A program made the translations under genes and the position numbers. Below are positions 2,339 to 13,897 of a DNA stretch of 64,000 bases, piece by piece. How positions within the stretch are numbered: position 1 is the stretch's first letter; the number at the start of each line of letters is the position of its first letter. Under the pieces are notes generated by a model. The model was not told where the DNA came from. It did no database searches and was given only the letters and a program-made list of their open reading frames with translations. This stretch comes from an uncultured Candidatus Binatia bacterium (GTDB lineage Bacteria; Desulfobacterota; Binatia; UBA9968; JAJDTQ01). The stretch lies in NCBI GenBank assembly GCA_965213675.1, contig OZ243916.1, positions 1,792,001 to 1,856,000 on the forward strand. The letters are read 5' to 3'.

Positions 2339-3319
2339 TCAGCAGCCGTTCTCCGGGAACAGCCGGGCCACGTTCCCGCCCAGCAGCTTGCGCTTGACGG
2401 CCGCGCTGGCCTTGACTGCCTTGACGATGGCGACGGCGTCGCCGAGGCGGTCGATGGTTGGGAAGTCACTGCCCATGAGCACCTGATCCTCGCCCACCAT
2501 GTCCATGGCGAAGCGAACCTCGCCCGGACGCCAGAACGGCGGCGCGGTGTCGATGAAGAGGCGGTGCTGGAACTTGTCGAAGTAGCCCTGCTCGCGCTTG
2601 TCCCAGAAGGACGGGTTGAGGCGGTTGCGGAGCGCAAACCAAGCGCCGCCCAGGTGGGTGAAGACGAAGCGCAGTTTGGGGAACTTCTCCAGCGTGCCGC
2701 TCAGCATGAGGCGCACGATGTTGATGGTGTTGTCCATGGCGCGCCCGAGATTGCGGGTGAGGTTGAACTGCTCCATGCCGTGGGGGTGAGCCAGCGGCAA
2801 CTCCGAGGACGGATGCACGAAGATCGGGATGTCCAGATCGGAGACCAGGCGGTAGAAGGGGTGGTAGCGCCGGTCGTCCAGCAGCGCCCCGTGGATGTGC
2901 GTGTTGATGCCCACGCCGCGGAACCCCAGCTTCAACACCGCGCGCTTGAGTTCCCGGCGGCCGCCGGCCTCCAGCGCGGGCACGTGCGCCAGCGGGATGA
3001 TGCGGCCGGGGAACCGTGCCACGAGTCGGGCCATCTCGTCGTTGATGAAGCGCGCCGCGGGAACGTCGATCCAGTCGAGCCAGCAGCCCACGTGAAGCAC
3101 GGCCTGGTCCACGCCCACCCGGTCCATCTCCTCGATCTGCGCGGTCATGTCCGCAGTCATGGCGGGGGGTCCGAAAAGCTGCACCCCTTCCCGGCGGATG
3201 GCGAGCCGGTCCGGCCGCCGCACAACCGTCTCCCCAGCACGGATCAGCGGTTCCGGGTGCCGGTAATGTACCTCGGGCATCCAGTGATGATGCGCGTCGA
3301 TGATCAGCGTCTTCGCCAT
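2339..3319 (-). CDS. Amidohydrolase_2 family protein (ACMSD/decarboxylase-like)
   Basis: IIDAHHH, FVHP, THLGG and MGSDFP motifs; AGGAGG before ATG 3319. Confidence 0.9.
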   Translation of the reverse strand: MAKTLIIDAHHHWMPEVHYRHPEPLIRAGETVVRRPDRLAIRREGVQLFGPPAMTADMTAQIEEMDRVGVDQAVLHVGCWLDWIDVPAARFINDEMARLVARFPGRIIPLAHVPALEAGGRRELKRAVLKLGFRGVGINTHIHGALLDDRRYHPFYRLVSDLDIPIFVHPSSELPLAHPHGMEQFNLTRNLGRAMDNTINIVRLMLSGTLEKFPKLRFVFTHLGGAWFALRNRLNPSFWDKREQGYFDKFQHRLFIDTAPPFWRPGEVRFAMDMVGEDQVLMGSDFPTIDRLGDAVAIVKAVKASAAVKRKLLGGNVARLFPENGC

Positions 3320-3379
3320 GGAGCCTCCTGGGAGCCTGCGCCGCAGGAATTCGCGAAAGCGACAATTCGCCATCGCCAT

Positions 3380-3443
3380 CCCTTCGGCCGGTCGATTGAG
3401 AAAAATATCATGTCAAATTTGACGAAATCGACCGGCCGAAGGG
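3380..3443. repeat. 18-bp perfect inverted repeat enclosing an AT-rich loop with palindrome GTCAAATTTGAC
   Basis: CCCTTCGGCCGGTCGATT (3380-3397) / AATCGACCGGCCGAAGGG (3426-3443); inner palindrome 3412-3423. Confidence 0.8.
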
Positions 3444-3490
3444 GCGGATGAGAGCGGTTCTGCAGCCGTGAATTCCGGCGGCGCAAGCTC

Positions 3491-3655
3491 CTGGTGTGGT
3501 GTCTGGTTAATTCGCGTCATAATCTGCGGGTCTTTTTCGCCGTCGGCTGCGTTGTTCTTCCTCGCGTGGTACACGCCACTGCTCGTCATCGCGCCTTGCC
3601 GACAACAAAAAATCCTCCGCAGATTATGACCCGAATTAACCAGACACCACACTAG
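3491..3655 (-). mobile_element. MITE copy A (165 bp, 35-bp TIRs, CTGG/CTAG ends)
   Basis: TIR TGTGGTGTCTGGTTAATTCGCGTCATAATCTGCGG at both ends (1 mismatch); near-identical inverted copy at 11698-11862; no coding capacity. Confidence 0.9.
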
Positions 3656-4938
3656 GCATCCGCCCCTTTGCTCGGGGCGACGATCCAGATGCACGCCAAC
3701 GATAGCACACACAGCACGATACCGATCCAGCACGAGCTGGCATAGCTGCCTGAGAGGTCGTGGAGGTAGCCCGCCAGCCAAGGGCCGATACCCGCGCCCA
3801 TGCCGATACTGAAAGCCAGAAAGCCGATGATCGAGCCGAAATGCTCGCCATGAAAAATATCCGCGGCGATGGTCGGATAGAGCCCTTGGCGCGACCCGAA
3901 ACCCACGGCGAACAGCGGCGGGTAAAGCGACGCCACGAAAATCTCCGACATCCCCTCGAGGTTGAGGATGAACAGGATGCCGCCCACCAAGGCCAGACTG
4001 CCGATGGTGTAGGCTCGCTCGCTGCCGATGCGGTCCGAGAGCGTTCCCATGCCGATCATGGTGAAGGTGGTGAACAACCCGGTGAGGCCCAGTACCCAGG
4101 CTCCGAACTCCCGCGAGAGTCCGGCGTCCACCATGGCGGCCACCTGATGCACCAACACCATGTGCACGGGGATGGCGCCCAGCACAAACCCCCCGGCCAG
4201 CGCCCAGAACCGGTAGTTGCGCAACGCCGCAGCGAGAGTCACGCCGCCCTCGCGCGCCCGGCGCGGACCTCCGCTTGCCGCGGCCGTGGTCACGCCGAAG
4301 TCCGGCAGCAGTCCCATGTCCTGCGGCCGGCGCCGTTGGAAAAGCACGTTGAGCGGCACCACCGCCGCCACCATCAGGCCGGCCAGCATCAGATACGCGT
4401 TGCGCCAGCCGAATGCGCCGATCAGCCACTCCGCGGCCGGCACCACCAGAAAGATGCCGGCGCCGATGCCCGAAGCCGCAAGGCCCATGGCCATGCCGCG
4501 CTTGCGAACGAACCAGTTGCTGATGACCGTGGCCTGCGACGTCATGGGCAGCGCGGCGAAACCGAAGCCCACCAGAAGCCCCATGCCCAGGTAGTAGTGC
4601 CAGACGGCCTGCGTCATGGCGCTGACGATGAAACCTGCGGCCATGAGACCGGCGCCCGCCGGGAACACGAACCTGGGGCCGAGCCGGTCCAGCATCTGCC
4701 CCCACACCGGCGCGGAAACGGTCCATGCCACCGAGCCGAGGGTCAGCGCGCCCGCGGCCAGGCCGCGGCTCCACTGAAACTCCTCGATAACCGCCACGAA
4801 GAAGAGCGCGAAAGCGGCGCGGCACCCGAAGGCGGCGGCGACGGTCGTGAACGAGATACCAAGGACCACCCACGGGTAGGCGCGGTTGAGCCGTGCCGTG
4901 CGCGCGGCGGGCGCGGGATCGGGATCCCGTGCGCTCAA
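3652..4938 (-). CDS. MFS transporter (OFA/MCT-like, 12 TMS)
   Basis: GQMLDRLGPR and GTLSDRIGSE motif-A loops, NWFVRKRGMAMG; TAG stop lies in the MITE CTAG. Confidence 0.9.
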   Translation of the reverse strand: MSARDPDPAPAARTARLNRAYPWVVLGISFTTVAAAFGCRAAFALFFVAVIEEFQWSRGLAAGALTLGSVAWTVSAPVWGQMLDRLGPRFVFPAGAGLMAAGFIVSAMTQAVWHYYLGMGLLVGFGFAALPMTSQATVISNWFVRKRGMAMGLAASGIGAGIFLVVPAAEWLIGAFGWRNAYLMLAGLMVAAVVPLNVLFQRRRPQDMGLLPDFGVTTAAASGGPRRAREGGVTLAAALRNYRFWALAGGFVLGAIPVHMVLVHQVAAMVDAGLSREFGAWVLGLTGLFTTFTMIGMGTLSDRIGSERAYTIGSLALVGGILFILNLEGMSEIFVASLYPPLFAVGFGSRQGLYPTIAADIFHGEHFGSIIGFLAFSIGMGAGIGPWLAGYLHDLSGSYASSCWIGIVLCVLSLACIWIVAPSKGADA

Positions 4939-4974
4939 CCGACAGTTCCCCCAGCGGCCGAAACAGGCATCCGG

Positions 4975-6054
4975 CTACGCCAGTCTGGGAACAATTTCGT
5001 CGCTCAGGAACCGGATCACAGAGGCGTAGTCGCGGCCGAGCTTGGCGAACGAGATCTGTTGAAACCCGAGGCGCTCGGCCTCGGCGGCCAGCTCCATGAT
5101 GGGCTCCACACAGTCCGAAGGCCTTCCGGCGACGAAGCAGGCGCGCGGCATGGCGTCGGTCACGAGCTCCCGCGAAGCCTGCTCGATGGTCATGCCTGAA
5201 TGAAGCGCCTCGCGAATGCGGTTGACCCGATCATGGTCGATGCCGATGCGTTCGAACTCCTCGGGGCTGTACCCCAGGGCCTGGAGGCTCACCATGTGAT
5301 GGGCCGCGTACTTCCTGGCCTCGGCCAGCGCCTCCTCGGGTTCTTCCGACACCGCGAGGTTGATCTCGCAGACCTTGCGCAGCTTCTTGTCCGGATCCAC
5401 GGCGCGCGCGGCCGCGTCCGCCCCCGCCATGGCCTGCTCCAACCGCCCGAGCTTGTGCATGGAGATGAAGTACCCGCCCATGAGCACCCCTTCCATGGTC
5501 TCGCCCGCTATGGCCAGGAAGCGCGGCCCCACGCCGCCGCCGTAGAAGCGCACGGGCGCCGCCGGCGGCCGCACCAGTTCGATGTGTCCACGAGGGTTCA
5601 TGTGGAAGTAGTCGCACAGGGCAGGATATGCCTCGAACTGGACGTGTTCGCCGCGGAACAACGCGCCGAGGAAACCCACCGTTTCCCGCACGATGCGAAA
5701 CGGCTGCGCCATCTCCAGATACTGCGGCACCTGCCCCTTGCTGCCCTTGGCGATGCCGAGGCTGATCTCACGCCCCTCGGTGAGTTCCGAAATGGCCAGA
5801 ACGGCGTCGGCCACGTCGATGGGATTGCGGAAGTAGGGCACCAGGATGGCGGTGCCGACCTTGAGGGGGGCGCGCGCGGCGATGGCCGTGGCGACGCTCA
5901 GGACGTTGCGGTAGCGGAGCGAATCGCTGAGCCAGACCTGCTTGAAGCCCCTTTCGGCGCCAAGCCCGGCCAACTCCATCAAATCCCTCGTGGTGTAGTA
6001 AGAAGCCGCCTGCAGCACGAACTGGAGTCCGAACTCCCCCGAGAAAATCGCCAT
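4975..6054 (-). CDS. Luciferase-like monooxygenase (LLM) class oxidoreductase, Mer-like (possibly F420-dependent)
   Basis: AERGFKQVWLSD, VGTAILVPYFRNP, GREISLGIAKG and GVGPRFLAIAGE; purine-rich SD before ATG 6054. Confidence 0.85.
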   Translation of the reverse strand: MAIFSGEFGLQFVLQAASYYTTRDLMELAGLGAERGFKQVWLSDSLRYRNVLSVATAIAARAPLKVGTAILVPYFRNPIDVADAVLAISELTEGREISLGIAKGSKGQVPQYLEMAQPFRIVRETVGFLGALFRGEHVQFEAYPALCDYFHMNPRGHIELVRPPAAPVRFYGGGVGPRFLAIAGETMEGVLMGGYFISMHKLGRLEQAMAGADAAARAVDPDKKLRKVCEINLAVSEEPEEALAEARKYAAHHMVSLQALGYSPEEFERIGIDHDRVNRIREALHSGMTIEQASRELVTDAMPRACFVAGRPSDCVEPIMELAAEAERLGFQQISFAKLGRDYASVIRFLSDEIVPRLA

Positions 6055-6208
6055 CCCCTCCCCCTTTCGGCCTGTCACTCGATTCGGGATGTATCCCGAT
6101 TCCCACGCGGCCTGCAAGGCCACGGCCATCGGTCCGGGCCGGGACGACGGGTTCGAATCACGCGGCCGGGATTCACGACACCGGGAGGCGGCAGGATTCG
6201 GGTCCAGG

Positions 6209-6232
6209 GCAGGGGCAACCGGCCGGTCGCCC
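6209..6232 (+). repeat. REP-like palindrome, GYAGGGGCGACCGGCCGGTCGCCC family
   Basis: GCAGGGGCAACCGGCCGGTCGCCC; relatives at 20184, 22135 and 49306. Confidence 0.6.
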
Positions 6233-6323
6233 TTGGGACGGGCGCCCGTACAGGCGTGGCCGGCGCTCGCCCCTGTACGGGTGCCGTGCCTGGCGGCACA
6301 TCCCCGAGTACTGGCGCAAGCTC

Positions 6324-7220
6324 TCAGGTGCCGGCGGCGTGGCGTTCTTCCTGGAGCGCGGCGATGCGGTCCTCGATGGGCGGATGGCTGGCGAACAGCA
6401 TCTTCAGGCCGCCCTTGCGGACACCGGAGATACCCATGGCCGCGAGCTGTTCGGGCATGTGTTCGGGCTCCACGCTCCGCTGGAGGGCCTGCAACGCGCC
6501 GATCATGCTGGCCTTGCCGGCCAGGTAGGCGCCGCCGGCGTCGGCCCGGTACTCGCGCCGTCGGGAATACCAGGAAACCACCATGCTGGCCAGGATACCG
6601 AGCAGGATCTGCGTGACGATCACGGTGACGAAGTAGCCCATGCCGTAGCCCCCTTCGCCGTCCCGGTGGAGCGCACGGTCCACTATGTATCCGATCACCC
6701 GGGACAGGAAGATCACGAAGGTGTTGAGAACGCCCTGGAGCAGGGTCAGCGTCACCATGTCGCCGTTGGCGATGTGGCTCACCTCGTGGCCCACCACGGC
6801 CGCCGCCTGTTCCGAATTCATGGACCGCAAGAGGCCCGTGCTCACCGCCACCAGGGAATTGTTCCGGCTCGGGCCGGTGGCAAAGGCATTGGGCTCCGGG
6901 GAATCGTAGATCGCCACCTCGGGCATGGCGATGTTCGCGGCCCGGGCGTGGTTCTGCACGGTGTTGACAAGCCAGCTTTCGGTGTTGTTCCGGGGTTCAT
7001 CGATGACCGTCAAGCCCATCCATCTCTTGGCTGTCCACTTGGAGATGGCCAGGGAGATGAAGGCGCCGCCCATGCCGAAGATGAAGGAGAACGCCAACAG
7101 TGGCCAGAAGTCGATGCCCTTTTGATGAAGCAGCCCGTCAAGGCCGAGTACACGGAGCGCAACGGCCAACACGAACAGTATTGCAAGGTTGGTGATCAGA
7201 AAAAGAAAAACGCGTTTCAT
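6324..7220 (-). CDS. htpX: Protease HtpX (M48 zinc metalloprotease)
   Basis: MKRVFLFLITNLAI N-terminus, PNAFATG, HEVSH, SRRREYRAD and SHPPIEDRI; true start ATG 7220 lies within the 730-aa ORF. Confidence 0.95.
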   Translation of the reverse strand: MKRVFLFLITNLAILFVLAVALRVLGLDGLLHQKGIDFWPLLAFSFIFGMGGAFISLAISKWTAKRWMGLTVIDEPRNNTESWLVNTVQNHARAANIAMPEVAIYDSPEPNAFATGPSRNNSLVAVSTGLLRSMNSEQAAAVVGHEVSHIANGDMVTLTLLQGVLNTFVIFLSRVIGYIVDRALHRDGEGGYGMGYFVTVIVTQILLGILASMVVSWYSRRREYRADAGGAYLAGKASMIGALQALQRSVEPEHMPEQLAAMGISGVRKGGLKMLFASHPPIEDRIAALQEERHAAGT

Positions 7221-7360
7221 AAACCTGTTCCCTTCCTCTCGCGGATATCCTTCCTGCGTTTCAATCGACAATCTCAATCTACAATGCGGATCGTGCCGGA
7301 TCAATTCGGTGGCGCGGGCGCAGGAAAACCCGACCGTCGCCAACGGCGTATCGAGGCGCC

Positions 7361-8575
7361 CTACTCGATCCCGCGCACCGCCGGCAGACGCGCCAGACCG
7401 TACAAGCCCAGCGCCGCCACCAGGAAACCGCCCAAGGCCACGGCCGTGGGGGCGCCGGCGTACTCGGCCACGGTGCCGGAAATGGCGCCGCCCAGGGGCA
7501 TGAGATCCCAAGTGAGGCCGAAGAGCCCCAGCACCCGGCCGCGCAGGTCGTTGGGCAGGTTCAGTTGGAGGATGGTGTTGATGGACGTGAGATAGATCTG
7601 GTTGAACAGGCCCAGGAAGAAGATCAGGCCAAGGGACAGCGCGAACGACGCGGAGTAGGCGAACAGCATGAGCAGCGCGCCGAAGATCGCCGATCCCACC
7701 AGCACCTGCCAGCCCCGGCGTCCAGCTTGGGCCAGCCAGGCGACGATCAGGGTGCCGATGAGCGCGCCCACGCCGGAGCACGACTGGAGTAGCCCGAAGC
7801 CGCGCGAGTCCACGACCAGGATGGTGCGCGCGAACACCGGCAGCAGGATCACGTAGGACATGCCGAACAGGCTGTTGAAGCACGTGAGCCCGAGCAGGCT
7901 GTAGAAGAGTGGGTTGCGGCGCACGAAATCGAGGCCGGCGAGGATGTTGCGCCACACGCCGCCCTGGGGCTGTCCGGCCACGGGGCGGGACCGGATGAAC
8001 GCCCACAGCGCCACCGCCGCCGCCGAGCTCACGAAACAGGCGATGAAGGTATGGCCCACGCCGAACCAATGGATCAGAAGGCCGGCGAGGCCGGGACCCA
8101 CCAGGCGGCAGGCCTGCCACACCGAACTGCCCAGCGCCACCGCGTTGGCGATTTCCTCCCGCGGCACCATCTCCGGCAGCAGCGCGTAGCGGCTGGGGCG
8201 GTCGAACGACCGCATCAAGCCCGAATTGAATGCGAACACGAGCACGTGCCAGAACGCGACGCGCTCGGTCAGAACCAGCAGGCCCAGCACCAGATAGGCC
8301 AGCGCCAGCAGCGACTGGGTGCACACCATGATGCGGCGCTTGTCGGCGCGGTCGGCGACGGCGCCGCCCACCAGCACCAGCGACACGCGCGGCACCGCGT
8401 AGACGATCCCGGCCACCCCCAGCATCAACGGCGAATCCGTCAGCAGGAACACCAGCCACGCCTGCGCGGCCATCTCCATGTTCAGCGCCAGCACGGAGGA
8501 GAGCTGGCCCAGCCAATAGAGACGGTAGTTGCGGTAGCGCAACCCGGCGAACAGCCGGCGCAGCAGGTCTCCCAT
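7361..8575 (-). CDS. MFS transporter (MFS_3/DUF894-like)
   Basis: LRYRNYRLYWLGQ, GAVADRADKRR and LRGRVLG; ~12 hydrophobic segments; start ATG 8575. Confidence 0.88.
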   Translation of the reverse strand: MGDLLRRLFAGLRYRNYRLYWLGQLSSVLALNMEMAAQAWLVFLLTDSPLMLGVAGIVYAVPRVSLVLVGGAVADRADKRRIMVCTQSLLALAYLVLGLLVLTERVAFWHVLVFAFNSGLMRSFDRPSRYALLPEMVPREEIANAVALGSSVWQACRLVGPGLAGLLIHWFGVGHTFIACFVSSAAAVALWAFIRSRPVAGQPQGGVWRNILAGLDFVRRNPLFYSLLGLTCFNSLFGMSYVILLPVFARTILVVDSRGFGLLQSCSGVGALIGTLIVAWLAQAGRRGWQVLVGSAIFGALLMLFAYSASFALSLGLIFFLGLFNQIYLTSINTILQLNLPNDLRGRVLGLFGLTWDLMPLGGAISGTVAEYAGAPTAVALGGFLVAALGLYGLARLPAVRGIE

Positions 8576-8673
8576 GGCCGGTTCAGTGACCGCGGGCCCT
8601 TGGAGGGTGGGACCCGGCGCGACCACCCCGCGGAGAAATCCGGGGTGCGGACGCGAGTCGTCGGCTGCGGGCC

Positions 8674-8940
8674 TCAGAGCGCATCGTTCGGCCGCGGAGC
8701 AGGGCGCGAGGCGCGCTCCATGCGTCCCAACAACAGCAGCAGGAACGCGGCGCTGAACGATACCGTGGCAATGAGCAGCGCCACGCCCGCCTGCGCCGTG
8801 TGGACCGTGCTTTGGGCACTCAGGGCGACCACCGCCGCGTACGCGCCGTAACCCGCGGTCATCGCGCCCCAGGCGAACAGGACCATTGCCGCGAAAGCCG
8901 CCATGCAGCGGAACGTCACACAAAGGCCCAGGCGAGTCAA
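8674..8940 (-). CDS. Small hypothetical membrane protein (2 TM)
   Basis: 88-aa ORF with two hydrophobic stretches filling the intergenic gap, co-directional with the MFS; TTG start uncertain. Confidence 0.45.
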   Translation of the reverse strand: MTRLGLCVTFRCMAAFAAMVLFAWGAMTAGYGAYAAVVALSAQSTVHTAQAGVALLIATVSFSAAFLLLLLGRMERASRPAPRPNDAL

Positions 8941-9088
8941 TCTGGACCCGCTCGCGCAAACTTGTTAGTGTCCTCTTTCAGACGTTTCCTTCAGGATGCC
9001 GCGCGGCGCGCGCCGCGCCGGCCCTTCGCCGGCCCTTCAAAGGCACGCGAGGAAGACCTCCGGGACATCCGCACCGAGGCTTGAACAC

Positions 9089-10267
9089 ATGGCGGGAACA
9101 CTCGAAGGCATCAGGATTCTGGAACTGTCCAGCTACGTCACCGGCCCATTCGCTTCCATGCTCATGGCGGACCTTGGCGCCGAGGTGATCAAGGTCGAGG
9201 AGCGCGAGCGCGGCGACCCCTTCCGTGGCTGGGGCGGCGGCACGATGTACTCGGCCACCTTTTGCAGCCTGAACCGCAACAAGAAGAGCATCACCCTGGA
9301 CCTGCGCAAGGAAGAAGGTCAGGAAGTGTGCCGCAAGCTCGCCGCCGAGGCGGACGTGCTCATCGAGAACCACCGTCCGGGCGTCATGGCCCGGCGGGGA
9401 CTGGGCTACGATACTCTCCGGGAGTTGAACCCGAAGCTCATCTACTGCTCCATCTCCGGTTTCGGCCAGGAAGGTCCCTACCGCGACCGGCCCGGGTACG
9501 ACACGGTGGGCCAGGGAATGAGCGGCCTCCTGAGTCTGCTGACCGATCCGGACGATCCCAAGGGCATGGGCATCTCCCTCTCGGACCATCTCACCGGAGT
9601 GTACGCGTGCTACGGCGTGCTGGCGGCCTTGGTGAACCGCATGATCACCGGCGAGGGGCAGATCATCGAGACCTCCCTGCTGCGCGCGTCGGTGTCCTTC
9701 ACCGCCGAGAACTGCGCCCGCTACTTCGAGACCGGTGTCGTGCCCAGCCGCGCCGACCGCACCCGCACCGCCGGGGTGTTCGCCTTCGTCGACCGGGACG
9801 GCCGGCCCTTCGTCGTCCACCTGTCCTCGCCCAACAAGTTCTGGCTGGGGCTCGTGAAGGTCGCCGGAAAACCCGAGTGGGGGGAAGACGCGCGCTTCGC
9901 CGACAAGGAAGGACGTACCGAGCACCACGACTTCCTCGAACGGGAGTTCCAGGCCATCTTCGAGCAGGACTCCCGCGACGTGTGGCTGCAGAAACTCCGG
10001 GAGCACGACGTACCCTCCACTCCGCTGAACAACCTCGAGGACATGTTCAACGATCCGCAGGTCAAGCAGTACGGTTTCCCCATCGAGGTGGAGCATCCCA
10101 GGATGGGCAAGGTGAAGCTCGTGGGAAGTGGCGTGAGCATGAGCCGGACGCCGCCCGAGACGCCGACGCCGCCGCCCATGCTCGGGGAGAACACCGACGA
10201 GATCCTGCGGCGAGTCGGCTACACCGCCGAAGCGGTCGATGCGCTGCGCGGCCGGCAGGTCGTCTGA
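9089..10267 (+). CDS. Family III CoA-transferase (CaiB/BaiF)
   Basis: LEGIRILEL, GPFASMLMADLGAEVIKVE, NRNKKSITLDL, ENHRPG and PGYD. Confidence 0.95.
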   Translation: MAGTLEGIRILELSSYVTGPFASMLMADLGAEVIKVEERERGDPFRGWGGGTMYSATFCSLNRNKKSITLDLRKEEGQEVCRKLAAEADVLIENHRPGVMARRGLGYDTLRELNPKLIYCSISGFGQEGPYRDRPGYDTVGQGMSGLLSLLTDPDDPKGMGISLSDHLTGVYACYGVLAALVNRMITGEGQIIETSLLRASVSFTAENCARYFETGVVPSRADRTRTAGVFAFVDRDGRPFVVHLSSPNKFWLGLVKVAGKPEWGEDARFADKEGRTEHHDFLEREFQAIFEQDSRDVWLQKLREHDVPSTPLNNLEDMFNDPQVKQYGFPIEVEHPRMGKVKLVGSGVSMSRTPPETPTPPPMLGENTDEILRRVGYTAEAVDALRGRQVV

Positions 10268-10411
10268 ATATTTGCGTTGATTGTTGGCAACCAAGTCTGC
10301 TAAGTAACGGCTCTCATTCGGATAATTGGCCGACGGCGCCAGCACCGCTGACGCGCAAGGGTCGGTCGGCGGCAATGGGCGCCAAACAGAACGGGATATC
10401 AGGAAATCGTC

Positions 10412-11701
10412 ATGATGCACTCTACGAAAGTTATCGGCCTTGCAGTTGCGTTGTCCCTCTCCCTTGCCGCCTGCGTCTCCACCGACGAGCACGAACGGGT
10501 GAAGCAGGAGCGAGACCAGGCATCGCAGGCGAAGGAACAGGCCGAAGCCAAGGTCGCCGAGTTGACGAAAACCCTGGAGCAACGCGGCCAGGAGGTCGAG
10601 GCTCTCCAGACGAAGGGCCAGGAGATGGAGCAGGCGGCGACGGCGTCCAAGAGCGCTCTGGAACAGAGCGGGAAGGACCTCGCGGCCGCGAACAAGCAAG
10701 TCAAGGAGTTGAACGCGGCGGTGGCCACCCTCACCGGCGAGCGGGACAGTGCGCGCAAGAACGCCGATGACACGGCCCGGCAGCTCGCCGACAAGACCAA
10801 GGCCGCCGATGATCTCGCCGCCCAACTCACCGACAAAAGCAAGACTGCCGACGATCTCGCTGCCCAACTCGCTGACAAAGGCAAGACTGCCGACGATCTC
10901 GCCGCTCAACTCGCTGACAAAAGCAAGACTGCCGACGATCTCGCTGCCCAACTCGCTGACAAAAACAAGGCCGCCGACGACCTCGCCGCCCAACTCGCCG
11001 ACAAAGGCAAGGCCGCCGATGATCTCACTGCCCAACTCGCCGACAAAAGCAAGGCCGCCGATGATCTCACTGCCCAACTCGCTGACAAAAGCAAGGCCGC
11101 CGATGATCTCGCTGCCCAACTCGCCGACAAAAGCAAGACTGCCGACGATCTCGCCGCAGCCAAGGCCGAACTGGAGAAGAACGCCGCCGCGCTATCGGCC
11201 AAGCAGGACGAGTTGAACGGACGGCTGAAGGGACTTGAGCAGCAGATGGCGCAGAAGGACACGTCCCTCGCCGAAGCGCGCGCCCGAGCCGACGGGCTGA
11301 ATGCAGCAAAGCAGTCGCTGGAAGCAGCGGTTGCCAAGCAGACAGCAGCCTCGGCTCAAGCAAACAAGGAACTGGCGCAGGCGAAGCAGTCCCTTCAGCA
11401 GTTCCGGCGCTCACTGGGCCAGACCCGCGCCGAGAAGGACAAGGCGCTCGCTGACATCGCCGCCAGGGACAAGGCGTTGGCTGAAATGGCCACCAAGGAA
11501 AAAGAGGCGGCCAGGAAGCTCGCGACAGCCCAGGCTGCCCACGGCAAGGCGCTTCAGAAACTCCGGCGGCAGCTGACCGAAGCCAACGCTGAGAAGGACA
11601 AGGCCCTTGCCGGTCTCGCCGCCAAGGAGAAGGAGCTGGCCGAGATGGCCGCCAAGGCCCCGGCACCCGCCAGCGAGCCGGGCGGCGCCCAGCAGCCCTA
11701 G
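10412..11701 (+). CDS. Long coiled-coil lipoprotein with 14-aa tandem repeats
   Basis: Signal peptide with lipobox LAAC; A/K/E/Q-rich heptads throughout; TAG stop lies in the MITE CTAG. Confidence 0.85.
   Translation: MMHSTKVIGLAVALSLSLAACVSTDEHERVKQERDQASQAKEQAEAKVAELTKTLEQRGQEVEALQTKGQEMEQAATASKSALEQSGKDLAAANKQVKELNAAVATLTGERDSARKNADDTARQLADKTKAADDLAAQLTDKSKTADDLAAQLADKGKTADDLAAQLADKSKTADDLAAQLADKNKAADDLAAQLADKGKAADDLTAQLADKSKAADDLTAQLADKSKAADDLAAQLADKSKTADDLAAAKAELEKNAAALSAKQDELNGRLKGLEQQMAQKDTSLAEARARADGLNAAKQSLEAAVAKQTAASAQANKELAQAKQSLQQFRRSLGQTRAEKDKALADIAARDKALAEMATKEKEAARKLATAQAAHGKALQKLRRQLTEANAEKDKALAGLAAKEKELAEMAAKAPAPASEPGGAQQP
10781..11158 (+). repeat. In-frame 42-bp tandem repeat, 9 copies (QLADKxK[A/T]ADDL[A/T]A)
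   Basis: Nine consecutive units of about CAACTCGCYGACAAAAGCAAGRCYGCCGAYGATCTCGCTGCC. Confidence 0.95.
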
Positions 11702-11862
11702 TGTGGTGTCTGGTTAATTCGCGTCATAATCTGCGGAGGATTTTTAGTTGTCGGCAAGGCGCGATGACGAGCAGTGGCGGGTACCACGCGAGGAAGAGCA
11801 ACGCAGCCGACGGCGAATAAGACCCGCAGATTATGACGCGTATTAACCAGACACCACACTAG
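11698..11862 (+). mobile_element. MITE copy B (165 bp, CTAG at both ends)
   Basis: CTAG + 35-bp TIR + 87-bp core + TIR + CTAG; about 7 differences from the reverse complement of copy A by manual comparison. Confidence 0.92.
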
Positions 11863-11902
11863 TAGCCTGCGCCGCGATGCGCGGCGCGGTCCGGCCGGGC
11901 CC

Positions 11903-12628
11903 TCAGTGCTTGATCGCGGGCCAGTCGTACAGCAGCTTGCCGTAGCCGGAGATGCTGCAAGAAAAACCCACCCTGGAAAGCATGTACCAGAGCATGGCGG
12001 GATTGCTGGCCACCACCGGTCGCGCCAAGTCGTGCTCGATGCGTTCCATCACCGCCAACGGGTCCAGCACCGCCCCCTGGAAATAGATGGCCTGCACCTC
12101 GGGATTGGCCTGGAAGGCCGTTTCCGTAAGGGCGTACACGTCCGCAGGCGCCACCTCCATGGCATCGCGATAATCGTCGAAGGTGTCGGCTGGCGAGATG
12201 GCCTCGACACCGCAGCCGGCAAGATAATCGCGGATCAGCTTGTTCATGGGCTCCACAAACGGCGTCAGCAGTAGCACCTTGGGGGTCGAGAGCGACTTCA
12301 GGGCCTCCGCGCAGGACTCCAGGGCCGTGGTCACCGGCACGTCCACCGCGTCCTTGAGCCTTCCCAGGAGCCCCGGATTGAGCACCTCCACCGGTGCGCC
12401 GCTGACAATGACGCCCTGCCAACCGCGCTCCCGCGCCAGCCTCGCGGAGGTCTCCACTACATGGTCGCCCGTGCCCCGGAGGCTCTCCAGGGGGCCGCGC
12501 ACGATGCCCAGCCCCTCGAACTCCACCTCCACTTCCGCGGGGATGAACGCCCGGAACGGTTCGAAGTGGGGACTCGAGCTCGAAATGGGCGTCACGAAAC
12601 CGACCTTGACCTTTGTCGCATCTGCCAT
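11903..12628 (-). CDS. Asp/Glu racemase-fold protein (maleate isomerase/arylmalonate decarboxylase-like)
   Basis: VGFVTP, VPVTTALES, VLLLTPF and RPVVASNPAMLW; AAGGAGG SD. Confidence 0.82.
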   Translation of the reverse strand: MADATKVKVGFVTPISSSSPHFEPFRAFIPAEVEVEFEGLGIVRGPLESLRGTGDHVVETSARLARERGWQGVIVSGAPVEVLNPGLLGRLKDAVDVPVTTALESCAEALKSLSTPKVLLLTPFVEPMNKLIRDYLAGCGVEAISPADTFDDYRDAMEVAPADVYALTETAFQANPEVQAIYFQGAVLDPLAVMERIEHDLARPVVASNPAMLWYMLSRVGFSCSISGYGKLLYDWPAIKH

Positions 12629-12680
12629 GGGCACCTCCTTCGAGCAAAATTGGCCTTTCCCTGCCTCTCGCTACGATTCG

Positions 12681-12701
12681 ATTAACCAGACACCACACTA
12701 G
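12681..12701 (-). mobile_element. Solo MITE end (21 bp)
   Basis: ATTAACCAGACACCACACTAG is identical to the MITE terminus and contains the TAG stop of the TraB-family gene. Confidence 0.85.
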
Positions 12702-13897
12702 AATGAACGCGCCGCGATCCAACTGCCGCCGATGAACGTTCCCAAAGTGCTGCCCAGGTTCGAGAAGACCACCACCAGCAGGATGCGTGACACCGGGTTG
12801 CGCCACAGTCCCTTGGGGAACGCGGTCACCACCTCGGACATGCCCTCCAGATCCGCCACGGTGGGCTTCTTGACCCAGGCCTGAACGAACCCCGAGACCC
12901 AGCCCGCGGCGATGGTCGGGTTGAGGCTGGTGACCGGAGCGGCCAGAAAGGCTGCCAGCACGGTGATCGGATGCCCCAGGGCCAGGGCTGCGCCCGCGGC
13001 CGCGAGCACGCCATTCACCAGCACCCATATGGAGAGGGACTCAAGGGAATGGGCGGCCCCGGTGCTGTAGAAACCATACGCGATGATGGCCAGGATCAGT
13101 GCGGGCACCACCCACTTGATGCTCCTGGCCCAGAGGGACGGCTCCGGGACTTCTTCCAGCGCGTCGAGGGAATGTTCCCGTTCAATTGCCCGTGTAATTC
13201 CGGGGACGTGCCCGGCGCCCACCACGGCCACGACACGCTCGCCCTCGGCTTCCCGGATCTTCTGCGCCAGGTAGATGTCACGCTCGTCGATGAGGCTCCG
13301 CTTCACCGCCGGGAAGGCCTTGGCGAACTCCAGCAGGACGTCCTCCAGGCGATCCGCCTGCTTGAGTTCATCCACCGCCTGCCTGTCGACCTCCGGCTCG
13401 GCCAGCGCGCTGCTCAGAAGGACGAACAGCGCCTTGAGCTTGTTCCAGAGGCTCAGACTCCTCCAGGTGCGCTTCAGAGTCACCTGGACATCGCGGTCCA
13501 CCAGCACCAGGTCCACGCCCCGCTCCTGCGCCAAGCGCACGCCTTCCAGCATGTCCGCCCCCGGCCGCACGCCGAGACGGTCGCCCATGCGCTTGTAGAA
13601 GGCCGACATGATCAGATGGCTCAACAGAAGCGCCGCCTTGCCTTCCCTGATGACCTTGAAGACGTTCATCTTCTGCCATGCGTCGGGCCGGGTGAAGGAC
13701 TCGTAGCGGGCCTGGCACAATTCCACGCAGATGGCGTCGGGGTTCACCAACTCGACGGTCCTGCGCACATCGTCGACACTCTCCAGGGATACGTGCGCGG
13801 TGCCGACCAGGTAGACCTCCCGGCCCCGATCGTTCAACCGCCGTGCATACGCGGGCAACCCGCCCACGCCCGGCGCCTTCGAGGCATCGATTTCCAC
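12698..13897 (-). CDS. TraB/PrgY/GumN (Tiki-like) family protein with C-terminal TM region
   Basis: YLVGTAHVS, ICVELC, PGADM, LIDERD and VVGAGH; probable GTG start just after the creatininase stop. Confidence 0.9.
   Translation of the reverse strand: MEIDASKAPGVGGLPAYARRLNDRGREVYLVGTAHVSLESVDDVRRTVELVNPDAICVELCQARYESFTRPDAWQKMNVFKVIREGKAALLLSHLIMSAFYKRMGDRLGVRPGADMLEGVRLAQERGVDLVLVDRDVQVTLKRTWRSLSLWNKLKALFVLLSSALAEPEVDRQAVDELKQADRLEDVLLEFAKAFPAVKRSLIDERDIYLAQKIREAEGERVVAVVGAGHVPGITRAIEREHSLDALEEVPEPSLWARSIKWVVPALILAIIAYGFYSTGAAHSLESLSIWVLVNGVLAAAGAALALGHPITVLAAFLAAPVTSLNPTIAAGWVSGFVQAWVKKPTVADLEGMSEVVTAFPKGLWRNPVSRILLVVVFSNLGSTLGTFIGGSWIAARSF

Follow-up and report, generated by a model that had tools for sequence, protein, structure and literature searches.

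RUP and IS630-Spn1 are the nearest known kind to the element that we describe here: the ends of RUP match those of the insertion sequence (IS) IS630-Spn1, and RUP is presumed to be moved in trans (passages on RUP in PMC3049150). We have analysed a stretch of 64,000 nucleotides, hereafter the window, from an uncultured Candidatus Binatia bacterium (assembly GCA_965213675.1, contig OZ243916.1, positions 1,792,001 to 1,856,000 of the forward strand), and find that it carries copies of a MITE (miniature inverted-repeat transposable element) whose flanking CTAG tetranucleotides contain the stop codons of adjacent genes. Like RUP, the Binatia MITE is short and non-coding, is present in many copies, has terminal inverted repeats (TIRs) that match an IS630-family IS, and both clusters with and inserts beside other repeats. 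Unlike RUP, it has two ends that each copy the right end of the IS, it has one 87-nt core that is found on at least four classes of ends, and its target is CTAG rather than plain TA; its host, moreover, is uncultured and G+C-rich. The Binatia MITE is a new family of the RUP/IS630-Spn1 kind. We put at roughly 80% the probability that it is an IS630-derived MITE, mobilised in trans by an IS630-type transposase, that targets CTAG and whose habit of lying on stop codons comes from the availability of such sites.

Other described elements share single features with this MITE. ISY100, an IS630-family element, inserts into TA (according to portions of PMC2170065), and IS630 of Shigella sonnei prefers TA within 5'-CTAG-3', as the title of Tenzen and Ohtsubo 1991 has it in the reference list of the same article; the likeness lies in insertion at TA and duplication of TA, in the case of IS630 within CTAG. 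Both of these elements are autonomous, whereas in the Binatia genus the abundant form is the MITE. BOX of Streptococcus pneumoniae, also small and interspersed, is similar in that many genes have stop codons provided or overlapped by the repeat (in 36 of the 58 coding sequences that it overlaps, the overlap is at the extreme 3' end and the stop is encoded by BOX, according to the BOX passages of PMC3049150), but BOX is modular (boxA, boxB and boxC), is related to another IS and does not rebuild the target stop exactly. ERIC and Correia elements are MITEs that are transcribed into hairpins and that act on mRNA, by way of RNase E or RNase III, in a manner that depends on their orientation (PMC3049150, in the passages that treat them); they have no sequence relation to the Binatia MITE, which has no Rfam match and is known from DNA alone. 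MITEPsy1 of Pseudomonas syringae, 100 nt long and related to IS5, likewise inserts at CTAG, duplicating 4 nt (CTAG or YTAA, as given in portions of PMC3189936); the Binatia MITE, unlike MITEPsy1, duplicates TA and matches an IS630-family IS. A term search of a 2024 review of prokaryotic MITEs returned no mention of stop codons, IS630, CTAG or orientation, and a literature term search found no paper that joins Binatia with MITEs.

Results

Two full copies of the MITE lie in the window. Copy 2 (11698..11862, plus strand; 165 bp including both CTAG tetranucleotides) served as the reference for all searches, and copy 1 (3491..3655, minus strand, core forward), recovered in a self-comparison repeat search, is 95.76% identical to it, with 7 differences over 165 nt; the two have opposite orientations on the plus strand. 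The repeat search delimits inverted arms of 40 nt in copy 1 (95%; 3490-3529/3617-3656) and of 39 nt in copy 2 (97%; 11698-11736/11824-11862), in each case with 87 nt between them, and the arms of both copies consist of the 35-nt TIRs plus the flanking tetranucleotide. The terminal 21 nt recur with 100% identity at three sites (3635-3655, 11842-11862 and 12681-12701), the last of which is a solo end, a direct repeat that adjoins the stop codon of a TraB-family gene. In all of this the initial annotation of the DNA, which had described two near-identical full copies and a solo end, was accurate, as it was in placing a stop codon within the terminal CTAG at all three sites, where open reading frames (ORFs) end at 3652 (minus strand), 11701 (plus strand) and 12698 (minus strand). 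The first of these is the end of an MFS transporter gene (3652..4869, minus strand; Pfam MFS_1, E = 7.6e-40), whose TAG stop (3652-3654) lies inside the CTAG of copy 1. The second ends a gene for a repeat-rich coiled-coil or lipoprotein-like protein (10451..11701, plus strand; an ORF call), with the left CTAG of copy 2 supplying its TAG stop (11699-11701), and the third ends the TraB/PrgY/GumN-family gene (12698..13897, minus strand; Pfam TraB_PrgY_gumN, E = 4.8e-38), whose TAG stop (12698-12700) lies inside the CTAG of the solo end. Both full copies have the same orientation, which we call forward, relative to their own gene, again as first described. The description of the element as bounded by CTAG fails at the left end of copy 1 (3491-3494, plus strand), which reads CTGG, decayed from CTAG.

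The recurrence of this family in the genome is far beyond chance. BLASTN returned 77 full-length and 49 partial or variant copies in the assembly (4.53 Mb, 65% G+C, 21 contigs), and copies that bear the core number 112, or 105 once duplicated loci are removed. The element is present in 22 of 24 genomes of the same genus and in none of 16 genomes from the other families of the order; the public records among the matches listed for an identical 23-nt end (at least 90 loci) carry Candidatus Binatia or related metagenome-assembled genome labels. By their ends, 96 alignable copies divide into classes A (59, the window type), B (17), D (5) and C (3), with 12 hybrids or others. Read from consensus lines, the 87-nt core of class A differs from those of classes B, C and D at 2, 3 and 5 positions, respectively, whereas the 35-nt ends are alike at just 23/35 (A/B) and 16/35 (A/C) positions; expressed as identity, the core consensus is 94-98% the same across TIR classes and the ends only about 46-66%. 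The 154 cores collected here and from other genomes comprise 103 distinct sequences, in which 76 of the 87 columns, counted by hand, are at least 90% uniform. Within class A, diversity is 0.036 in the core and 0.047-0.052 in the ends, and within class B it is 0.135 and 0.088-0.119. Since within a class the ends are as well preserved as the core, source copies appear to share the core and individual copies to decay evenly. The MITE of the window is family A of a genus-wide superfamily in this uncultured Candidatus Binatia genus, and family A copies in this genome are 93-100% alike.

Departures from the standard form were also seen. Three mini-elements of 44 bp consist of little beyond two joined ends (C1:2573567-2573610, C1:3944527-3944570 and C17:39334-39377), other species have longer family A variants, in which the same ends enclose about 186 or about 222 bp, and some cores of relatives contain a nested small palindrome. 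Several congeners have longer elements that begin like the MITE, with the 39-nt end complete and the core just entered, and then pass into an unrelated A+T-rich interior; these are possibly a larger, cargo-bearing or island-associated relative.

A candidate source of transposase is present in congeners. Loci that have a perfect end and lack the core, at which a coding stretch ran into the end, led to an IS of 1160 bp, bounded by CTAG, in the genome G022 (L111 1578-2737). The single ORF of this partner IS (360-372 aa) matches Pfam DDE_3 (E = 1.3e-20) together with HTH_23/28/29/32, and scores 260.2 bits against NCBIfam NF033545 (IS630 family transposase), for which the cut-off is 100. Its right end is identical to the MITE end at 24/24 nt, counting CTAG, and its left end is related yet distinct (5 of 20 positions differ by eye); both ends of family A copy the right end only. 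Copies at 98% identity or more are confined to two genomes, G022 (3) and G012 (3); relatives at E <= 1e-30 occur in 14 of 27 congeners, and the relatives in other congeners are 46-51% identical. One of them, 48% identical and present in 11 copies in G042, carries the class B end, so the end classes appear to track different IS630 relatives. The initial annotation had called the MITE a non-autonomous, CTAG-bounded element and had looked ahead to a transposase gene with the same TIRs; the many non-coding copies and the partner in G022 and G012 agree with this, and of the two origins it had named, IS630 and IS5, the end match and the flanks favour the former and speak against the latter. We note that the partner ORF reads through the right inverted repeat and that its TAG stop is made up of the duplicated TA and the flanking G, such that it is completed only by insertion.

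Within the genome under study, a tblastn search with the G022 transposase gave as its best hit only a 26% match on contig C14. The two DDE_3 and 13 DDE_Tnp_1 matches of this genome were considered as partners and set aside, none having matching ends, and the solo ends near C1:294767, C4:31811, C1:1999838 and C1:2002583 were likewise rejected as IS ends, ordinary genes and no transposase following them. Family A itself is small (165 bp) and non-coding: one reading frame has no stop along its full length, and a short frame that starts with TTG lies behind GGAGGA, but the long frame is open in both orientations and was rejected as coding on that ground.

The flanks of the copies fit the arrangement C-TA-[G...C]-TA-G, in which a duplicated TA stands within CTAG and the missing G and C of the motif come from the element itself; for copy 2, the element proper under this model is 11701-11859. 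Among 176 copies, 104 have CTAG on both sides and 27 vary in one outer base on one side (11 in the left first base and 16 in the right last base), and in 0 of these 27 is the variant mirrored as a 4-bp direct repeat. Further variants (CCAG, CTGG and CTCG/CGAG) look like later decay, and the flanking tetranucleotide is the most variable part of the element. In the mechanism that we propose, an IS630-type transposase acting in trans would cut the MITE out and paste it into the TA of a CTAG, the TA would be duplicated, and the terminal G and C of the element would rebuild CTAG at both junctions. Where a gene's terminal C+TAG serves as the target, the gene's C, the duplicated TA and the element's first G are predicted to restore TAG exactly, and so the protein would be unchanged, with no residue altered. 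The idea that the element lands harmlessly on TAG stops follows directly from the sequence, in which the ORF is unaltered.

Landing sites of this type are scarce, with CTAG occurring 1143 times genome-wide against 4037 expected (0.28 of expectation). Outside elements, 544 CTAGs are intergenic, 289 are coding and 176 are on stops, and stops make up 24.4% of the non-coding CTAGs. Of the 3738 genes called (83% coverage), 1157 (31%) end in TAG. Unique copies of the MITE are at stops in 26 of 105 cases (24.8%), which does not differ from the 24.4% baseline (p = 0.91); for class A the count is 18/56. The enrichment at stop codons that the three sites in the window had suggested is thus not supported in this genome as a whole, where copies are no more associated with stops than the availability of CTAG predicts. 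Because CTAG is rare and about a quarter of non-coding CTAGs are stops, stops would offer one of the chief places to land without harm. Surviving insertions would be expected at 3' ends more often than in promoters. We infer that the stop association is a by-product of target choice and the loss of harmful insertions. The count of 0/112 copies inside coding sequences was dropped as evidence, since the caller cannot call a gene across an insertion. Separately, the use of TAG at 31% of predicted stops seems high for a genome of 65% G+C.

Comparison of orthologous stretches recovered the several states expected of a mobile element at two of the three stops, in keeping with the empty-site comparison that had been suggested: empty, filled, differently filled and remnant alleles exist at the MFS and TraB stops. 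The element is missing from the MFS stop in G022, G042 and G012 (the gene ends on TGA and the next start is 11 nt on), G015 has an empty CTAG, and G024 has a different CTAG-flanked MITE. At the TraB stop, full MITEs of other end classes are found in G013, G003 and G011, an empty ACTAG in G009, a remnant of about 12 nt in G001 and the 21-nt remnant in the window. At the lipoprotein stop, the gene has a diverged C-terminus and a TGA stop in the three relatives compared, which gave no clear reading of an empty site. Besides the solo end of the window, this genome has three more short ones at stops (C1:1999838, 2002583 and 2818326). Solo ends are probably deletion remnants, which would persist because deletions running into the gene are not tolerated. 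Of five sequencing runs listed, four cover the stretch, all of one study; their contigs break at repeats, and none of the joins between them corresponds to the loss of exactly one MITE.

The MITE has a preferred orientation. We combined 80 public copies with 300-nt flanks, 80 copies from congeners and 60 from G003, G013 and G011; of 332 stretches, 282 were parsed, 255 had both flanks of at least 200 nt, and clustering by flank similarity left 221 independent sites. Among these, clusters at stops comprise 59 forward, 22 reverse and 5 with both (p = 4.8e-5), and the last batch alone (G003, G013 and G011) gives 16:5. The initial annotation had proposed a fixed orientation to the host gene; what we find is a bias of about 3:1. 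Moreover, between co-directional genes the ratio of forward to reverse is 31:7 on stops and 31:8 off stops (62:15 overall), and since the two agree, the bias is not tied to stops but follows the direction of transcription. Copies co-orient with local transcription in about 75-80% of cases, or about 3-4:1. By class the counts are 28:6 for A and 34:9 for the others; by age, 37:5 for young and 25:10 for old copies; and at stops by context, 29:7 in tandem, 15:7 in convergent arrangement and 15:8 where no gene is close by. Within this genome alone, stops have 14 forward and 4 reverse copies of class A and 4:4 of the others, and non-A copies in tandem contexts are 12:15; the signal is not uniform.

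Since the two ends are alike, the difference between orientations must lie in the core, which is 64% purine on the forward strand, with a C/G ratio of 0.59 forward and 1.68 reverse. Folding of copy 2 gives -101.1 kcal/mol in the forward direction (z = -14.8) versus -91.6 in the reverse. In our reading, the bias would reflect the removal of antisense copies from transcribed DNA. We conjecture that the antisense core, being C- and pyrimidine-rich and less folded, may invite Rho or RNase and so cause polarity on downstream genes.

The main rival to this explanation of the bias, and one that we regard as unlikely, is that orientation is set at insertion, the direction of transcription or replication being sensed by the transposition complex or by some host factor that binds the core. 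The youngest copies are at least as biased as the old ones (37:5 versus 25:10), as a bias set at insertion would have it, and the core is common to all TIR classes, as if it were needed for propagation. There is also a hint of a link to replication: family A copies in this genome are 20 co-directional and 34 anti-directional to it (p = 0.076), and copies abutting stops are 12 forward and 0 reverse at lagging-strand genes as compared with 7 forward and 8 reverse at leading-strand genes. This link, however, is seen in this genome only, in numbers too small to separate from gene direction, and family A has one and the same sequence at both ends, by which the transposase alone could not tell orientation. 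We know of no record of an orientation bias of this sort for IS630/Tc1 elements, which also counts against its being set at insertion.

A second alternative, decidedly doubtful in our view, is that the MITE is a selected RNA module of 3' untranslated regions (UTRs) and operon spacers, in which the sense hairpin stabilises, processes or insulates the upstream mRNA, as part of a dispersed post-transcriptional system. The sense bias at stops (59:22) and in tandem contexts (62:15) would suit such a role, as would the better folding of the sense strand, the retention of a 94-98% identical core across classes whose ends are only about 46-66% alike, and the uniformity of 76 of 87 columns among 103 distinct cores; ERIC, Correia and boxB elements provide examples of orientation-dependent RNA effects (in the relevant passages of PMC3049150). 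The share of copies at stops nevertheless equals availability in this genome, and within a family the core is not preserved any better than the ends are (0.036 against 0.047-0.052 in A, 0.135 against 0.088-0.119 in B), with no extra conservation of the core in older copies. Copies decay to solo ends, and the orthologous genes of relatives do without the element or have another family in its place.

The pairings within the core that had been pointed out at the outset (GTCGGC/GCCGAC and GTGG/CCAC) are present yet nearly invariant; no pair co-varies, and in a core that hardly varies the pairings speak neither for an RNA structure nor against one. Rfam gave no match at E <= 1 within the MITE copies; two sub-threshold microRNA look-alikes lie in an adjoining element of another family (see below). 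A scan for promoters and terminators found nothing above shuffles, the sole terminator call being a 6-pair stem inside the left TIR (1 found against a shuffle mean of 0.5). An intrinsic (Rho-independent), SPRITE-like terminator repeat was rejected, the whole hairpin being followed by no T run, and the lack of a terminator-like U tract also counts against the RNA module.

The least tenable alternative, an IS5-type MITE that duplicates the whole of CTAG and is moved by IS5-family elements of this genome, finds some support in the CTAG at both ends of 104/176 copies, in the presence here of CTAG-flanked IS5-family elements (a 1.3-kb IS and two on contig C21) and in the precedent of MITEPsy1, which duplicates CTAG (portions of PMC3189936), but it is highly improbable given that the ends of these IS5-family elements are unlike the MITE ends, that 4-bp mirroring is seen in 0/27 outer-base variants and that the IS with the matching end encodes an IS630-family transposase. 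The 1.3-kb IS5-family element is present in 5 full copies (one of them at C1:940802-942104) and 1 truncated copy, with CTAG-like flanking tetranucleotides. CTAG is a common landing site for several unrelated mobile elements in this genome.

One such neighbour directly adjoins copy 1. It is a member of an unrelated second MITE family, which we call R (3332..3490, no strand assigned), with flanks of CTAG or CTGG and inverted ends of its own, and it is in this element that the two microRNA look-alikes lie. Together with copy 1 it fills the gap of about 330 nt from the MFS stop to the start of a downstream amidohydrolase gene (2339..3319, minus strand; Pfam Amidohydro_2), a start that in relatives lies only 11-20 nt past the MFS stop in alignments of the orthologous stretches. 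R-family ends flank many other family A copies in the genome, often directly adjoining them, and two chimeric elements (C1:589196 and C1:1056196) have one family A end and one R end.

The gene that ends on copy 2 contains a 42-bp tandem repeat in 10 copies (10672-11241), encoding a 14-residue repeat, and the sole Pfam match of its protein is a sub-threshold one to crescentin-rod. Part of the same region of the window (8609-11689) is repeated at 96% identity on a separate 3-kb contig (C13:1-2998); this duplicate, together with an estimated contamination of 8%, suggests a second strain in the assembly. At about 9160-9300 of the window, the depth summed over contigs exceeds that of the bins on either side by 5- to 20-fold, and numerous contigs terminate. 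This segment is repeated or widely shared coding DNA and is unrelated to the MITE.

Discussion

We have found that a MITE present in more than a hundred core-bearing copies in a Candidatus Binatia genome has, in its family A, an end that matches the right end of an IS630-family IS of congeners at 24/24 nt, that its flanks fit duplication of TA within CTAG, and that its share at stop codons is the share that CTAG availability provides. Several points weigh against an account in these terms. The stop counts depend on a home-made codon-usage caller (3738 genes); in other genomes a copy was taken to be at a stop on the basis of at least 60 open codons and a log-odds of at least 15 under the codon table of this genome, and the copies there were sampled by similarity to the window copy rather than as a census. 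The share at stops is 31/80 among sampled copies from other genomes, for which there is no CTAG baseline of their own, and 86/221 among all independent site clusters, which is above the share in this genome; a modest true enrichment at stops may exist in other genomes. One IS copy in G012 is flanked by CTAA...CTAA and is alone compatible with a 4-bp duplication. The assembly of this genome contains no partner IS, although its family A copies are 93-100% alike, and the present mobility of the MITE in this organism is accordingly putative. With regard to orientation, the contrast between tandem and convergent contexts is not significant (Fisher p = 0.35), and young copies are biased no less strongly than old ones, which fits a bias at insertion as well as it fits fast selection.

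Two features of the family take it beyond a routine MITE, and both are real and unexplained: the 3-4:1 co-orientation with transcription on and off stops, and a core that is nearly invariant across end classes that go with different transposases. We suggest, tentatively and as a possibility to which we give a low probability, that the purine-rich 87-nt core may be a functional module, refitted repeatedly with ends that belong to different transposases of the IS630 family (at least four classes plus hybrids), that would either steer co-directional insertion or be tolerated only in sense transcripts. If that were true, the cargo of the MITE would be an orientation-sensitive RNA or DNA signal that has spread through 3' UTRs and operon spacers across the genus.

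The IS630-derived origin that we favour provides a simple structural reason for a mobile element to sit exactly on stop codons at no cost: the stop is rebuilt from the target and the element's own end. In a G+C-rich genome that avoids CTAG, TAG stops would be among the main safe landing pads. By landing there, MITEs lengthen 3' UTRs and push apart genes that almost touch in relatives, as they do between the MFS and amidohydrolase genes, which are about 330 nt apart in the window as compared with 11-20 nt in relatives. These findings offer a first look at mobile-element biology in the phylum of Binatia, a phylum that, to our knowledge, is known from metagenomes only.

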